A DNA stretch of 64,000 bases from Escherichia phage vB_EcoM_F1: sequence record NC_054912.1. One strand, written 5' to 3'. Each line of letters begins with the position of its first letter. Positions within the stretch are counted from its first letter, which is position 1. This document shows positions 20,085 through 46,586 of this stretch, piece by piece. Under the pieces are notes generated by a model. The model saw only the letters and a list, made by a program, of their open reading frames with translations. It ran no database searches and was not told the DNA's origin. Both the position numbers and the translations under genes were made by a program.

Positions 20085-20378
20085 TTATTCGCCTGTGATT
20101 TCGGTTACGGTATTTTTGTTATTAAAGTTTTTATCGCAATACAGAACATAATTATACTGCATTACACCGCCAGACTTAAGTTGTTTTTGAACTTCGGCTT
20201 TCATTTCAGGACGATCACGCTCAACGATATTCATAATATCTGCTTCAATTTGAGTTTCAACCTCAGTCTGATCTGCAGTCATAGACCATTCGCACAAATC
20301 TTTATCATAACCTGCCATAGCAGGCTGAGCAGCGCAAGAAGCTAAAGCAAAAATTGTAGCAAAGATAAATTTTTTCAT
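20085..20378 (-). CDS. sp: Spackle periplasmic protein (superinfection/lysozyme inhibitor)
   Basis: 97 aa from ATG 20378 with GAGGAG RBS; signal peptide MKKFIFATIFALASCAAQPAMA; recognised as T4 Sp. Confidence 0.8.
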   Translation of the reverse strand: MKKFIFATIFALASCAAQPAMAGYDKDLCEWSMTADQTEVETQIEADIMNIVERDRPEMKAEVQKQLKSGGVMQYNYVLYCDKNFNNKNTVTEITGE

Positions 20379-20439: not shown

Positions 20440-20697
20440 TTATTTTAAAACTTTTGCGTAATCACATGTTACAAACTGTTTCTCTAGCTTAACGATCTTA
20501 CGAAAATACCTTTTACACTGACGAATCTGTCGCTTCGTAGGGCGCACAGCAAACTTAATAAATTCTACTCGACCAAATGGAGGGCTTTCTTCCGCTGGAA
20601 TATCTAACACCAATTCCCACGTATCCGCAATAAGTGCCTTGAATTGAGTATTTTTCCTGACGTTATACGGAGTAGGTTTAAATAAAACAATATGCAT
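20440..20697 (-). CDS. hypothetical 85-aa protein in the 61.4 position (possibly TifA-like)
   Basis: ATG at 20697 one nt after dmd stop; track ORF extends to 20739; identity by position and length only. Confidence 0.45.
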   Translation of the reverse strand: MHIVLFKPTPYNVRKNTQFKALIADTWELVLDIPAEESPPFGRVEFIKFAVRPTKRQIRQCKRYFRKIVKLEKQFVTCDYAKVLK

Positions 20698-20698
20698 A

Positions 20699-20881
20699 TT
20701 ATCCTCGGCAATCCACTTCGCACACTTTCTTGTCATCAATGAAAGCTTTAACTAATGCTTTATTAACTTCAGCATACTGAGTAGTAGCCCATTGAACGTC
20801 ATCTTTCATCATTGTGGTTTCTTTAGTAAACATGCTTTCATTCTTAAACCACCCCATAAAAACTACCTTTACCAATTCCAT
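20699..20881 (-). CDS. dmd: Dmd, antitoxin against RnlA/LsoA RNase toxins
   Basis: 60 aa MELVKVVFMGWFKNESMFTKE... recognised as T4 Dmd. Confidence 0.85.
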   Translation of the reverse strand: MELVKVVFMGWFKNESMFTKETTMMKDDVQWATTQYAEVNKALVKAFIDDKKVCEVDCRG

Positions 20882-41752: not shown

Positions 41753-42223
41753 TTAATCATGTTTCCACACCCCATCGGTATTTGACCAAAGTCGCTGATT
41801 ATCTGATCCTCGCCACAGCTTTTTAGTCGGAAGATTTTTCTCATACTTCCCATCAATAATAACATCAACATATTTAAGCATTTCTAGTTGTTTAATATCT
41901 TCAAACTTATATCCTGTCCACAACCAAATGCTTTTATTGGGATAAAGATTTTTTACTGTTTGAACGATGCAATGAATCACGTCTCTGTTATCAGGATAAA
42001 GAGGGTCACCTCCGGTTATAGTTAATCCTTCTATATAATCATTATTCAAACATTCAATTAATTGTTCTAGTGTTTCACCAGTGAATGGAATACCATTTCT
42101 AGCATTCCATGTTGATTTATTATAACACCCTTCGCATTTATGCAAACAACCTGTAACGAAAAGAACGGTCCTGCATCCAGGGCCATTCACAAAATCGCAA
42201 GGATAAAATCTATCATAATTCAT
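41753..42223 (-). CDS. nrdG: anaerobic ribonucleotide reductase activating protein (radical SAM)
   Basis: 156 aa; CxxxCxxC radical-SAM motif GCLHKCEGC. Confidence 0.85.
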   Translation of the reverse strand: MNYDRFYPCDFVNGPGCRTVLFVTGCLHKCEGCYNKSTWNARNGIPFTGETLEQLIECLNNDYIEGLTITGGDPLYPDNRDVIHCIVQTVKNLYPNKSIWLWTGYKFEDIKQLEMLKYVDVIIDGKYEKNLPTKKLWRGSDNQRLWSNTDGVWKHD

Positions 42224-43499
42224 TGGTGTTTAACCCTATGCATGATTTCTTTATTTTTACCGAGATTAAATCCGCGTTCGTTCGGATTTCCCAAATAACC
42301 ACATGTTCTTCTTATGGTATTCATCTTTTTAGGATCAGTTTCTCCACAAATAGAACAAACAAATCCGTTTTCAGTAGGAGTCATTTCATGGGTACTTCCA
42401 CATGTAAAACATTTATCTACTGGCATATTAACACCAAAATAATCTAAATGTTGTGCAGCATAATCCCACACGGCCTCAAGACCCTTTAAGTTATTTTTCA
42501 TATCAGGAAGTTCAACATAAGAAATGTGACCACCTGTCGCAATGAAATGATATGGCGCTTCACGAGAAATCTTTTCAAACGGAGTAATATTTTCTTCTAC
42601 TGAAACATGGAAACTGTTAGTGTACCAACCTTTATCAGTAACATCCTTTACACTTCCATATTTTTCTGTATCGAGTTTACAGAAGCGATAACAAAGGTTT
42701 TCAGCAGGAGTAGAATATAAACTAAAAGCAAAACCGGTTCTTTCAGTCCACTGTTTAAGATGAGCATTCATTTTAGTTAAAATTTCTCGTCCAATATCAC
42801 GACCGACAAGAATATTCAATTCGTGAATACCAATGTATCCTAGGGACACTGAACTTCTACCGTTTTTAAATAACTCAATTATGTCGTCATCAGGTTTAAG
42901 ACGAACCCCGAATGCACCTTCTTGGTAAAGAATAGGAGCAACAGTAGCTTTAACTCCTTTTAAGGAACTAATTCTACACATCAAGGCTTCAAAACATAAA
43001 TCCATTCGCTCATTGAATAATTCAGTAAATTTCTGTTCATTGAGCTGTGTTCCAATATAAGAATCTAACGCGATACGAGGAAGATTCAGTGTTACAACAC
43101 CAAGATTATTACGTCCATCAAGAATTTCATTACCAGTCGAATCTTTCCATACGCTCAAGAAACTACGGCAACCCATTGGAGAAACAGGAATAGATGAACC
43201 AGTGATAGCTTTATTGTTCTTAGCTGAAATAATATCAGGATACATTCTTTTGCTTGCACACTCTAGAGCAAGCTGCTTAATATCATAGTTCGGATCGTCT
43301 TTATAAAGATTAACACCTTCTTCAACAAACATAACAAGCTTAGGGAAAATAGGAGTTATCCCATCACGACCAAGACCTTTAATACGATTTTTCAGAATTG
43401 CTTTCTGAATCATTCGTTCAGTCCAGTCAGTTCCCGTACCAAATGTAATTGTTACAAAAGGCGTTTGCCCATTAGAGCTGAAAAGTGTATTTACTTCAT
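42220..43499 (-). CDS. nrdD: anaerobic ribonucleotide reductase NrdD, exon 2
   Basis: C-terminal glycyl-radical motif RRTCGYLG and Zn-ribbon CFTCG..CSICG; exon start inferred at 43499 (after intron terminal G). Confidence 0.75.
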
Positions 43500-43727
43500 C
43501 ATTATATTCAGCATGAGTCGCAAATTCATGCCCGTTTATATGAAACAACAAAATTTGGATAGTCCATAGATATGCAACGTTCTTTTATAGTGCTAGGATG
43601 AAAATTTAGCGCTTTAGCTGCTTCTATATAAGACGTATACTTAATACCGTCAACAACCACATATTCAGGAACTTTATGAATAGTAGTCTTAATACTCAAA
43701 ACAAGAGGATGAGTTTCGACTTCACTT

Positions 43728-44297
43728 TCAGTGCAATTTAAATATTCCGCTGCTTTTTTTAAAACTTCTAAAAGTTTTATTTTTAAGCTTTATCGATACT
43801 TGTTTTTTACTTTTTCGACTATTGATATTATTTTGCACATGTTCCTTAGATCTTCCGTTTTTAGCATAATATTCAGCTATAGAAGATTTTATATTGTTTT
43901 TATGAGATTCGGATAACACTTTACCCTTATGAGCATCTCTTAATTTTTGAATATGTTCTTCAGTATCCGGATGCTTATAAAACTTTTTACCGCCTATGGA
44001 TTTATTTAAACATTTTTTGCTATAAAAATGTTTACGTATGACCTCTTCTTCATGTTTTAATGCATCTTTATAACTATCAAATGTTTTTAAAATTATCCAT
44101 TTAGTAGGTGTATCAGTTTTTAAGCGTTCATTTATATACTTAGATGACGTTGTGTAAGTTTTCCAGTTTGTGGGCTTGTTTTTAATTGTTCTAAATTTTT
44201 TATAACCGATATAAATGTCGCCGTTAGAAAACTTAACTAAGTATGTAAATGCGTCTTTATCTTTTATTTTAGTACAACGTCTTTTTATCCATTTCAT
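43728..44297 (-). CDS. intron-encoded GIY-YIG homing endonuclease (I-TevII-like), apparently truncated by a frameshift
   Basis: 189-aa ORF with GDIYIGY motif; a further open stretch ending at 43526 in another frame encodes a NUMOD-like DNA-binding segment (YTSYIEAAKALNFHPSTIKERC); A7 run at 43754-43760. Confidence 0.65.
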   Translation of the reverse strand: MKWIKRRCTKIKDKDAFTYLVKFSNGDIYIGYKKFRTIKNKPTNWKTYTTSSKYINERLKTDTPTKWIILKTFDSYKDALKHEEEVIRKHFYSKKCLNKSIGGKKFYKHPDTEEHIQKLRDAHKGKVLSESHKNNIKSSIAEYYAKNGRSKEHVQNNINSRKSKKQVSIKLKNKTFRSFKKSSGIFKLH

Positions 44298-44326
44298 TGT
44301 TTCACCTCGTATTCATAAGATAATCT

Positions 44327-44334
44327 TATTTATA
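44327..44334 (-). promoter_or_regulatory. T4 late promoter (TATAAATA) inside the intron upstream of the endonuclease ORF
   Basis: exact TATAAATA on minus strand about 30 nt upstream of the ATG at 44297. Confidence 0.5.
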
Positions 44335-44545
44335 CAAGATGACTGCTGCATGTCGCCATGCAGATTAGACTATATCTTCATCTTTCGATGCCGGCCGTTT
44401 CGAATAGCATTAGCTTCTATTCTACACCGCTACATTCATCACGGTTAGTCGTTAGGCATTTAGTTCAAAAGAACATTTAGCACGGGATTGTCTACTAGAG
44501 AGGTTCCCCGTTTAGACCGGTTTTACATGAGCCTGAATTAAATTA

Positions 44546-45083
44546 ACTCATACGCCTGGAACGCGTCATAGACATCTTTTTCTGTTTTAGATTGAGCATA
44601 ATTCAATGCATCAGCGATTTGCCATTTTTCTGCATCCTCAATATGTTTTGCATAGGTGCGTTTAACATAAGGAGAAAGTACTTTATCTACATTCGCAAAA
44701 GTCGTTCCGCCATATTGATGGGAAGCAACCTGTGCAGTAATTTGTGCCATAATTGCAGTAGCAACACCGATTGATTTAGGAGTTTCAATCTGTGCATTAC
44801 CAAGCTTAAATCCATTCTCAAGCATTCCTTTTAAATCTACTAAACAGCAATTAGTAAATGGAAGAGCAGGGGAATAATCAATATCGTGGAAATGAATAAT
44901 TCCGCTTTCATGCGCTTTCATAATAAAAGACGGGACCATATTTTTGGCAATGTGTTTAGACACAATACCAGCCATAAGGTCCCGTTGAGTTGGAAAAACA
45001 CGAGAATCTTTATTAGCATTCTCGTTTAAAAGGTCTTTATTAGTTTTATGAATCAATCCTTCAATTTCTTTTTCAATTGTCAT
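44546..45083 (-). CDS. nrdD: anaerobic ribonucleotide reductase NrdD, exon 1
   Basis: N-terminal 179 codons; track ORF continues 2 codons into the intron before a stop at 44538. Confidence 0.75.
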
Positions 45084-45553
45084 TTTAAACTCTTTCTAAG
45101 CTGCTTCTTAAATGAAGCTATTAACTGTGTTTTGGTGTCAGATTCATTATATTCAAATCCTCTTTGAAGCATCTCAGCCATCATTTCCTCTTTTCCTAAA
45201 CGAGAAAATTCCTTTGATTTATCTCCAACAAAGTTAGGGTGAATATTATTTTGGGTGTAATCGGATTTTAAATAAGTAAGTAAATTTTCTAACCATTCAA
45301 GATAATCAACACCTTGTCCCTTTAAGCCAGAACGATTAAATTTATGCTTCATTTGACCTTCTGCAGCATTGCAGAGATTACAAAGCAATCCACGTACCTT
45401 TCCTGCTTTTGGTCCATTTAATTCATGGTCATGGTCGAGGTGATTAGCTTGAACATCAGGATTTAGTTCTCGTTGGCAAATTAAGCATTTACCGTTTTGT
45501 GCATCATAAAATTTCTGTTTTTCTTCTTTGTATAATTTGCCAGTCAATAACAT
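45080..45553 (-). CDS. 49: endonuclease VII, Holliday junction resolvase (gene 49)
   Basis: 157 aa; Cys-rich Zn site CLICQ...CNLC; recognised as T4 endo VII. Confidence 0.85.
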   Translation of the reverse strand: MLLTGKLYKEEKQKFYDAQNGKCLICQRELNPDVQANHLDHDHELNGPKAGKVRGLLCNLCNAAEGQMKHKFNRSGLKGQGVDYLEWLENLLTYLKSDYTQNNIHPNFVGDKSKEFSRLGKEEMMAEMLQRGFEYNESDTKTQLIASFKKQLRKSLK

Positions 45554-45595
45554 AATAAAACCCTTACCTTAAATAGATAAGGGTATTTATTATTT

Positions 45596-45772
45596 TTAAG
45601 TATTGTAAAACATTCGATGCAATCGTTTATACTGTCGAATCATCTTTTTAGTAGGACGAGAATAGGTTCCTACGCAAGTGGTCATATGAGGGTCCGTAGA
45701 ATGTCCTTTAATAAAAAGTTTCCAAACCTTACCGCCATTTAACTTTTCAGTATAAACCAATTCGGTTTTCAT
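45596..45772 (-). CDS. small hypothetical protein (58 aa) whose C-terminus duplicates the Pin C-terminus
   Basis: manually translated; ends KKMIRQYKRLHRMFYNT versus Pin QKIRQYKRLNQMFYNT. Confidence 0.4.
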   Translation of the reverse strand: MKTELVYTEKLNGGKVWKLFIKGHSTDPHMTTCVGTYSRPTKKMIRQYKRLHRMFYNT

Positions 45773-45807
45773 TAAAATGCCCTGTCAGAAAAAGAATTTT
45801 GAGTTTT

Positions 45808-46293
45808 TCAAGTATTATAAAACATTTGATTCAATCGCTTATATTGCCGAATCTTTTGGTCAGAAAAAGAAATTTGGGTTTCAAGCCATTCAATATATTC
45901 TGCCGCAGCTTGCATCAAATTTCCTTCATAGCCATCGTTATTTTCTTGTGCAGCTAATTTAGCTAATGCGTATGAAATACGTTCACCTTGAAAACCGGCT
46001 TTAGGTTTATGAATAGCTTGATCAACTCGTTCTACAACTTCTTCAATTTCGCCGTTTTCGACTGATTCAGTATTCCACAAACACCAATACGTAATTGGCT
46101 TATCATAGATGTTAATAATCTTTCCGTCGGAAAGTTCAATTTCAATAATTCCAGTATCAGGTTCTATATCATCTTCACATTCTTTTGCAAGTTCACGAAC
46201 TTTAAAGACAGTACCTGCACTAAGTTCCGGCCAGTAATTACATAGCCCTGTATCAGCACGATTAATTCTAAACCACTTATCTACTGTAATCAT
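45808..46293 (-). CDS. pin: Pin, inhibitor of host Lon protease
   Basis: 161 aa from ATG 46293 (MITVDKWFRINRADTGLCNYWPEL); recognised as T4 Pin. Confidence 0.7.
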   Translation of the reverse strand: MITVDKWFRINRADTGLCNYWPELSAGTVFKVRELAKECEDDIEPDTGIIEIELSDGKIINIYDKPITYWCLWNTESVENGEIEEVVERVDQAIHKPKAGFQGERISYALAKLAAQENNDGYEGNLMQAAAEYIEWLETQISFSDQKIRQYKRLNQMFYNT

Positions 46294-46415
46294 GTCCCAT
46301 CTCCATATCAATTAAGTCATTTATCGTTGGTTCATTATATACTGTTTCTTCATCAGTGTAAACCGGTTCTTCCGGCTCTGGCTCTACAGTTTCCCATCTA
46401 GCCGCCCACCAAGGT

Positions 46416-46586
46416 TTAACCCCGAAGCTTATTAAGTTCTTCATAACCAATCCAGGATTCTAATCCTGATGGCAGGTCACATTCAATTTCCCAAAGAAGT
46501 TCTTCAATTTTATGAAGACGATCTAATTCTTCAGCTGGAATAGTAACCATTGATGGAGTTATTGATACACTAATATCGTAAATCAT
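46416..46586 (-). CDS. small hypothetical protein (56 aa)
   Basis: track ORF 46416..46625 trimmed to ATG at 46586 just after upstream stop. Confidence 0.4.
   Translation of the reverse strand: MIYDISVSITPSMVTIPAEELDRLHKIEELLWEIECDLPSGLESWIGYEELNKLRG

Follow-up and report, generated by a model that had tools for sequence, protein, structure and literature searches.

A characterised relative of the gene described here is tifA, the renamed gene 61.4 of phage T4, whose product (ToxN inhibitory factor A) inhibits the type III toxin ToxN and is among the few characterised phage inhibitors of toxin–antitoxin (TA) defence. TifA is predicted to form a three-stranded sheet packed on a basic C-terminal helix with a conserved Pro-Thr cap, and a protruding loop of about 20 residues is the predicted ToxN contact, thought to set toxin specificity. 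The helix binds RNA; with P53A/T54A or K55A/R56A/R59A, TifA no longer binds RNA or inhibits ToxN (Guegler et al.). The genes dmd, tifA and adfA have been described as an anti-TA island of T4 (Srikant et al.), and inhibition of the host Lon protease by PinA is listed in a review as an anti-TA strategy. Here we describe a 58-codon open reading frame (ORF) lying between pin, the gene for PinA (Pin), and gene 49 in a stretch of 64,000 nucleotides (nt), the window, with coordinates identical to those of record MZ170041.1 (Escherichia phage vB_EcoM_FN, here FN; genus Tequatrovirus). By its profile matches the ORF is a short paralogue of TifA, and its 3' end is carried a second time, as a fused tail, by pin. 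Unless noted otherwise all features are on the minus strand, where the order is 49.1, pin, the 58-codon ORF, a hairpin and gene 49 (Table 1).

A preliminary description of the window had reported the ORF as unannotated and as ending like Pin. Both its location and the two endings are as reported there: the small-gene product ends ...KKMIRQYKRLHRMFYNT and the window Pin ends ...QKIRQYKRLNQMFYNT, the translations agree, and the two proteins share near-identical tails of 15 residues. The ORF is unannotated only in the gene track used for that description; in the public record it is the coding sequence FN1NEW_0082, labelled 'hypothetical protein'. Searches by tblastn matched the small gene in 368 phage records spanning Tequatrovirus, Dhakavirus and Mosigvirus, with identities from 100% to about 38%, and in 362 of them, matched over at least 80% of its length, the ORF is intact. 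Every pair with measurable synonymous divergence gives a ratio of non-synonymous to synonymous substitution rates of 0.07–0.25, which reflects purifying selection; against the Mosigvirus copy, most comparisons show saturation at synonymous sites. The small protein matches phrog_3272 end to end (E = 3e-34) and Pfam DUF7279 (PF23945) with 62.7 bits (cut-off 24.5), residues 7-56 aligning to profile positions 1-53 of 53 with the tail included. From its conservation and mode of selection the ORF is a genuine protein-coding gene. Metagenomic assemblies contain truncated or frameshifted versions of 41 (P0013) and 43 residues (P0008), which suggests occasional decay of the gene.

A profile scan of the six-frame translation of the window, the source of the link to TifA, also recovered tifA itself (PF23945, 72.7 bits), so that this phage carries two DUF7279 genes; its tifA product is identical to the published T2 TifA, and hhalign joins tifA to the small-gene alignment with a probability of 92.7%. 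On these matches the small ORF is a member of DUF7279 and a short paralogue of TifA. The two proteins have in common a core W followed by R-P-T-K-(K/R)-x-I-R-Q-x-K-R; P40, T41, K42, K43 and R46 of the small protein, which are invariant among its close relatives, align to TifA P53, T54, K55, R56 and R59, and the native tail aligns to the TifA helix P53-R63. The best AlphaFold model of the small protein (predicted local distance difference test score, pLDDT, 81.6) has strands at 2-9, 15-22 and 31-36 and a helix at 42-56, and thus the same sheet and Pro-Thr-capped basic C-terminal helix as predicted for TifA. Both are also small accessory genes of T4-like phages that are gained and lost by microhomology recombination. 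The differences are nonetheless substantial. The small protein has 58 residues as compared to 85, 27 fewer, with about 26% identity; it lacks about 15 residues near the N-terminus, three residues of the putative specificity loop, the stretch aligned to this loop forming strand 3 in the model, and the extension that follows the helix in TifA. The small gene lies between pin and gene 49, whereas tifA adjoins dmd; dmd (20699-20881), tifA and spackle (20085-20378), on the minus strand downstream of gene 41, constitute the T4 'anti-TA island' in this phage. The small protein is basic (isoelectric point 10.2) while Pin is acidic (4.5).

Other searches added little. Large protein searches returned few relatives (10 in a word-indexed and 9 in an exhaustive search of representatives), some of them spurious long repetitive proteins; NCBIfam contains no model for any of the three proteins; and a sequence search of the PDB with Pin and the small protein gave no match even at E = 1 to 10. 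A fold search of the PDB with the small-protein model gave nothing significant (best E = 0.23), and weak matches to double-stranded-RNA-binding domains were scattered and are not relied on. The chances that the small protein is a TifA-like RNA-binding protein appear to us evenly balanced, judged by analogy with TifA. That it neutralises some host ribonuclease toxin, possibly one other than the ToxN variants tried so far, is a tentative and less probable suggestion.

The segment common to the ORF and pin is a 49-nt direct repeat (45593-45641 and 45805-45853) in which 42 of 49 positions are identical (86%), with a spacing of 212 nt, and alignment of the two 3' ends bears out the similarity of the underlying DNA noted earlier. 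A degenerate 48-nt pattern allowing at most three mismatches occurs at only these two sites in the window and at none in 100 shuffles, and the next best ungapped match to the 49-mer anywhere in the window is 29/49. Compared codon by codon, the tails differ by four synonymous changes, one stop-codon change and two non-synonymous changes within the tail, and by two changes at the junction. A second repeat, which escaped the preliminary description, is 23 nt long (91% identical; 45784-45806 and 45859-45881; spacing 75), and its copy at 45859-45881 encodes ETQISFSD directly before the fusion point. The 23-nt and 49-nt repeats are parts of one structure.

Within this window alone, two copies at 86% identity fit transfer in either direction, and the preliminary description took the small ORF to derive from a partial duplication of the pin 3' end, the tail being originally Pin's. 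The family data point the other way. Pin matches PF10465 (Inhibitor_I24) with 163.6 bits (cut-off 27) over residues 4-141, and phrog_2167 covers residues 1-146, over which the window Pin is a typical PinA; it shows 93-96% identity with the Pins of T4 and T6. Its last 15 residues fall outside the PinA family domain by both definitions; residues 147-161 match instead positions 44-58 of phrog_3272, the PHROG of the small gene, and represent a fragment of this neighbouring TifA-like gene that is found only in two Tequatrovirus alleles (types A and C, below). The PinA used in biochemistry (T4, UniProt P07068) also carries these non-PinA residues. A search for the tail in all non-Tequatrovirus Pins of the family alignment found none with it: Dhakavirus Pins end ...FSDEAF or ...FSDKAF, those of Mosigvirus ...LERRLS, and more distant clusters ...FSSKSF, ...FNAKSF or ...FSDRGF. 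It is likewise missing from the Pins of 137 Tequatrovirus records. In DUF7279, by comparison, the motif R-P-T-K-K-x-I-R-x-x-K-R-x-H-R-x-F is kept in members of all lineages, down to about 40% identity, and the tail with its upstream Pro-Thr cap is an invariant feature of members from four genera and of TifA. A DUF7279 profile built from non-Tequatrovirus members only, and run in a decoy database of 2007 sequences, detected T4 Pin at residues 145-160 (E = 1.3e-4) and FN Pin at 146-160 (E = 1.4e-3), with no tail-less Pin detected.

Because the tail lies outside the PinA profiles, is missing from the outgroup Pins and is native to DUF7279, the comparisons show that Pin copied the end of the small gene; the tail belongs originally to the small gene and is a secondary feature of Pin, that of T4 included. 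The duplicated segment is not ancestral in pin, the outgroup sequences already refute a pin-3'-end origin of the small ORF, and we regard that origin as having next to no probability. The accompanying suggestion of a recombination scar is right in spirit, in that the repeat would mark a gene fusion and a later unequal exchange, with the direction reversed.

The locus exists in Tequatrovirus as four main alleles, which were counted with junction-specific megablast queries against GenBank phages (about 476 Tequatrovirus records) and whose structures were established by base-level alignment and translation of representatives. The census was made on GenBank phages because searches of IMG/VR returned just 6 and 9 loci. 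Type B (PP01; 68 records) has a 148-residue Pin ending ...SFSDRAF, whose stop codon overlaps the start of the 58-residue gene in TAATG. Type D (BYEP01; 69 records) has the same 148-residue Pin with the gene removed between TTTTAAT and TTTTACAAT. In type C, which includes the T4 reference, T2, T6, RB55, RB27 and RB32, the pin frame runs on from ...SFSD-R into M44-T58 of the small gene, the rest of which is gone; the count of 252 records comes from a longer query that only type C can cover, and an earlier count of 238 was an undercount. Type A (87 records), the allele of this window, combines a fused pin with an intact small gene, the two being separated by 33 nt left over from the former pin end. 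As such, 339 records have a fused Pin (A and C; about 71%), 137 a tail-less one (B and D), and about 33% retain the small gene. Of the types without the ORF, C keeps a single copy of the tail and D has none, and where two copies exist the ORF is intact; the repeat was not found to persist where the ORF is lost. The TAATG arrangement of type B is also found in Dhakavirus VR5, and the small gene lies directly upstream of gene 49 in Dhakavirus and Mosigvirus as well. This presence of a type B-like arrangement in other genera marks type B, as far as extant genomes record it, as the ancestral allele. A fifth allele is represented by a single record, Escherichia phage Ec_YwIITB1 (L035, 321-581). It combines a type B front with a small gene in which 17 nt of T6-type pin-tail junction (ATTCTTTTTCTGACCAAACG) shift the frame after RPTKK; the resulting 86-residue ORF runs on across the hairpin and into the first part of gene 49. 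This allele could be a rare recombinant or an assembly error.

All fused Tequatrovirus Pins use one fusion codon, with three junction spellings (CGAATG, CAAATG and CAAAAG), and nearly all carry R53Q. The common codon and R53Q argue for descent of these Pins from one original fusion. Type A has a more complex ancestry. Its leftover has the codons AGG GCA where PP01 has CGA GCG, a difference indicating that it once served as the real pin end in a diverged type B lineage. When the predicted donor junction was used as a query, phage SP1 matched at 99.1% in one piece; SP1 has a normal type B locus with the exact type A leftover, which there ends its 148-residue pin, and the type A small-gene allele. 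The type C phages T6, phiD1 and ACG-C40 have precisely the pin-tail variant seen in type A (GAC CAA AAG ATT CGG..., QKIRQ...). At this level of comparison, type A reads as two joined parts: as far as the A-run that follows the pin stop it matches a T6-like C allele, and from ...ACTCAAAATTC on it matches an SP1-like B allele.

From these alleles we infer the order in which the locus would have evolved. The ancestral type B, with a 148-residue Pin (SFSDRAF-stop) coupled through TAATG to the small gene, would have undergone one in-frame deletion joining pin codon 146 to small-gene codon 44, producing the 161-residue chimera with loss of the gene (type C). A separate deletion from TTTTAAT to TTTTACAAT would have removed the gene without fusion (type D). 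Unequal recombination of a T6-like C allele with an SP1-like B allele, in A-rich microhomology just past the pin stop, would then have restored an intact gene and left the 33-nt copy of the old pin end between, giving type A. The 49-nt repeat would thus represent two diverged small-gene 3' ends that reached one genome by different routes, differing at 7 of 49 positions because they diverged in separate lineages before being united, and the 23-nt repeat two copies of the pin 3' end; recombination within the 49-nt pair would give back type C, and within the 23-nt pair type B. In the FN sequence at 45800-45812 five A's follow the pin TGA, which places the leftover (KTQNSFSDRAF-stop) in the frame of pin; in the majority of the other type A phages there are six A's and the leftover is out of frame, and the FN configuration is probably a coincidence of slippage in the A-run. 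Duplications and deletions at microhomologies of 2-10 bp are well documented in T4 (rII, genes 16-18 and the dmd-tifA amplification), and the junctions here also lie at short common strings: TTTTAAT/TTTTACAAT in type D, ACGTTT in a Mosigvirus fusion (below) and the A-run in type A. They differ in being natural, fixed alleles that segregate among hundreds of isolates rather than laboratory events, and two of the events made in-frame chimeras.

We consider it very probable that this reading as a whole is correct, namely a TifA-like gene, a Pin tail acquired by fusion and the allele history given above, although several observations weigh against it. The order of events is read from extant alleles of freely recombining phages. 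Among the type B records found, SP1 alone has the AGG-ACA pin ending; instead of descending from the donor it could be a type A revertant, formed by recombination between the 23-nt repeats. Past the pin stop there are 5-6 A's, and the simplest crossover at CTTGAAA predicts three. None of the 339 records of types A and C has lost the open, in-frame pin tail, and T4 PinA, which carries it, is biochemically active. With regard to the kinship with TifA, only one of five models of the small protein reached a pLDDT of 81.6, the other four scoring 54-61, and a fold search of BFVD found only uncharacterised members of the family (S16, Merlin) and no structural neighbour outside it. Published work tested ten TifA homologues, six of which inhibited no toxin tried; the short subfamily is absent from that panel.

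The scarcity of SP1-like type B records (one) also favours a different order, in which type A came first through tandem duplication of the pin 3' end plus small gene in a type B genome, followed by in-frame deletion in the first copy; type C would then derive from A through the two 49-nt tails and SP1-like type B through the 23-nt repeats. Type A does hold both repeat pairs needed for C and B, and the tail of phage Shinka is chimeric, with a T4-like 5' end and, at its 3' end, the type A small-gene tail including its TAA stop and GGGTTTT hairpin variant, showing that tails do exchange. However, type C tails are the more diverse, with three junction variants, and are carried by the classic T-even phages, whereas type A small-gene alleles are near-uniform (109 records at identities of at least 99%). 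The T4 junction GAC CGA|ATG ATT is ancestral on both sides and the type A junction is derived; the two tails share no exact block longer than 9 nt, a poor substrate for homologous recombination; and the leftover codons are unlike those of the adjoining pin body allele, which points to two parents. We therefore regard a type A origin as unlikely, and a type B ancestor with a later, recombinant type A remains our preferred order.

The preliminary description had also raised the idea that the ORF and Pin share a Pin interaction motif, and a functional reading of this kind would have the tail retained for RNA binding, for contact with Lon or a ToxN-like target or for oligomerisation, the fused Pin being a neofunctionalised chimera. 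The activity of T4 PinA and the consistently open frame fit it, as does the standing of the fused form as the majority allele; four of the six in-tail codon differences between the window copies are synonymous, no Pin tail has lost the basic pair K49-R50, and a second, independent in-frame fusion occurs in a Mosigvirus-like phage. Nevertheless, the tail-less Pin is ancestral and persists in the type B and D records and in all other genera. The Pin tail starts at the equivalent of M44 and omits P40, T41, K42 and K43, the equivalents of which abolish TifA function when mutated. Of R46, H52 and R53, invariant in close DUF7279 relatives and found as Q, N and Q in Pin tails, the R46 equivalent is kept in FN and T6 and is Q in T4 and T2, which thus lack it too. 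The Pin tail therefore has neither the Pro-Thr cap nor all three basic residues that TifA needs, two of which are missing throughout, and does not form a complete TifA-type helix. Five tail protein haplotypes occur among Pins compared with essentially one among Tequatrovirus small genes, and the Pin model (pLDDT 62, the tail below 50) is too poor to say more than 'helical extension'. The in-frame nature of the fusions can be explained otherwise, since the native stop codon then stays in place ahead of the gene 49 hairpin, and we infer that in-frame fusions survive for this reason. A Pin interaction motif is thus not supported, and a functional tail is improbable in our estimation; to judge from its residues the tail is most likely a tolerated passenger scar.

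That hairpin (-18.1 kcal/mol, z = -4.67 by RNA folding) covers the Shine-Dalgarno sequence of gene 49 and abuts its ATG, carries a late-promoter-like TAATAAATA (45584-45592) in its 5' arm, and is kept in all five alleles and all Mosigvirus-type variants. A paper on gene 49 regulation is among those that one review lists as cases of late-gene ribosome-binding-site sequestration. The presence of the hairpin and promoter-like sequence just downstream of the small gene invites the view that the repeat is a DNA or RNA regulatory element present twice, with the small ORF incidental. Against this stand the protein-level purifying selection on the ORF across genera with saturated synonymous sites, and its match to a curated protein family well above threshold; moreover, neither repeat copy contains a sigma-70-like promoter or a terminator, type D has lost almost the whole tail sequence and kept gene 49, and Rfam finds no family at its gathering threshold in 43300-46500. 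A non-coding role of this sort is extremely improbable. A MotA-type middle promoter in the tail was considered by eye and rejected: the box-like TTGCATCA is too close to TACAAT, and type D lacks it in any case.

The T4-type mobile units reportedly described by Arbiol and colleagues in 2010 as PeSL cassettes, in which an early promoter and a stem-loop are said to flank a shuffled gene, differ from the present arrangement. Neither repeat copy here has a sigma-70-like promoter or a hairpin, the repeats being coding 3' ends, and the only hairpin at the locus is the single one upstream of gene 49.

Table 1. Positions of the pin–gene 49 locus features and of tifA in the window, with the basis for each.
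Feature	Position	Strand	Basis and remarks
Small gene, 58 residues, short TifA paralogue by profile (Pfam DUF7279)	45596..45772	-	ORF list, profiles, conservation; ATG 45770-45772, stop 45596-45598
Native tail copy, small-gene codons 44-58 (MIRQYKRLHRMFYNT)	45599..45643	-	makes up the greater part of the basic C-terminal helix
Pro-Thr cap and KK (RPTKK)	45644..45658	-	just upstream of the native tail, outside the duplicated segment
pin (PinA, host Lon protease inhibitor), 161-residue chimeric form	45808..46293	-	PF10465, phrog_2167, 'protease inhibitor' in relatives
Acquired tail copy, pin codons 147-161 (KIRQYKRLNQMFYNT)	45811..45855	-	outside PinA profiles; TGA stop 45808-45810 follows
33-nt leftover of ancestral pin 3' end	45772..45804	-	reads TQNSFSDRAF-stop; alignments; same sequence ends SP1 pin; TAA overlaps small-gene ATG (TAATG); carries 23-nt repeat copy 45784-45806 and, 7 nt ahead of the small-gene ATG, a Shine-Dalgarno-like AGGG
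Hairpin between small gene and gene 49	45552..45593	-	RNA fold, terminator-like match, alignments
Gene 49 (endonuclease VII), conserved downstream anchor of the locus	45080..45553	-	ORF list, annotation of relatives
tifA (T4 gene 61.4), characterised long paralogue, between dmd and spackle	20440..20697	-	PF23945, hhalign

Parallel rearrangements are found in other genera. In Mosigvirus NBG1 (L008, 306-1080) the order is 49.1, DUF7279-b, pin (137 residues), DUF7279-a and gene 49, with pin flanked by two paralogues. Among Mosigvirus-related variants (loci L027, L028 and L009), the pin of a Mosigvirus-like metagenomic contig continues in frame into the final 9 codons of DUF7279-a (...YLERR+FHRDFYNVY; 141 residues), joined across an ACGTTT microhomology, with gene 49 directly after; this fusion is evidently independent of the Tequatrovirus one. 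In another contig DUF7279-b reads through into pin, giving a 191-residue protein with both Pfam domains, and in PECP20 DUF7279-b lies directly before gene 49 and pin is gone. The pin of Dhakavirus JS10 (L006, 429-904) is split and permuted, a 57-residue ORF matching PinA profile positions 88-136 preceding a 100-residue ORF matching 3-74, and Dhakavirus VR5 (L007, 728-901) keeps only a C-terminal Pin piece; from such arrangements Pin looks like a two-module protein.

The textbook T4 PinA is, on this evidence, a chimera whose last 15 residues come from another gene family and are missing from the ancestral protein, which matters for the design of constructs in PinA–Lon structural work, as called for by one group. 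With four main alleles, a rare fifth and a parallel fusion, and with all parental forms available among public genomes, the locus also shows small phage genes being assembled, broken and joined again through microhomology recombination. Neither the gene family nor the recombination mechanism is new, and this is no new kind of system; apparently new are the recognition of the ORF as a pin-coupled minimal paralogue of TifA, the finding that T4 PinA is chimeric, and the reconstruction of the alleles. The literature searched contained no mention of TifA paralogues, of DUF7279 or of any link between TifA and PinA.

A small 'hypothetical protein' of hundreds of T4-like phages thereby gains a lead at the level of function, and its patchy distribution and coupling to a Lon inhibitor make it a direct anti-defence candidate. 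A more speculative reading, which we hold to be rather unlikely, is that pin and the mini-TifA gene form a second anti-TA module of T4-like phages, in which a Lon inhibitor would be translationally coupled to a minimal TifA-type RNA-binding protein and the short paralogue would neutralise a ribonuclease toxin that canonical TifA does not. Such a module would resemble the anti-TA island in having a TifA-family gene co-transcribed with another factor acting on toxin–antitoxin defence; it would differ in being a separate locus about 25 kb away, with a hypothetical anti-TA role. If it existed, presence or absence of the small gene, carried by about one third of Tequatroviruses, would be a determinant of host range, and the helix fragment of T4 PinA might retain some residual interaction.

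Product names in record MZ170041.1 are unreliable between 45080 and 48532, where gene 49 and pin are both called 'hypothetical protein' and the homologues of nrdC.1-nrdC.3 are all named 'thioredoxin'. The nrdD gene is annotated in two minus-strand pieces about 1 kb apart (42220-43551 and 44538-45083). No group I intron was matched at this break by Rfam at the gathering threshold; the gap contains a 189-residue GIY-YIG ORF (43728-44297; Pfam SegE_GIY-YIG) and a 57-residue ORF, and the break is at the position of the T4 nrdD intron with I-TevII.

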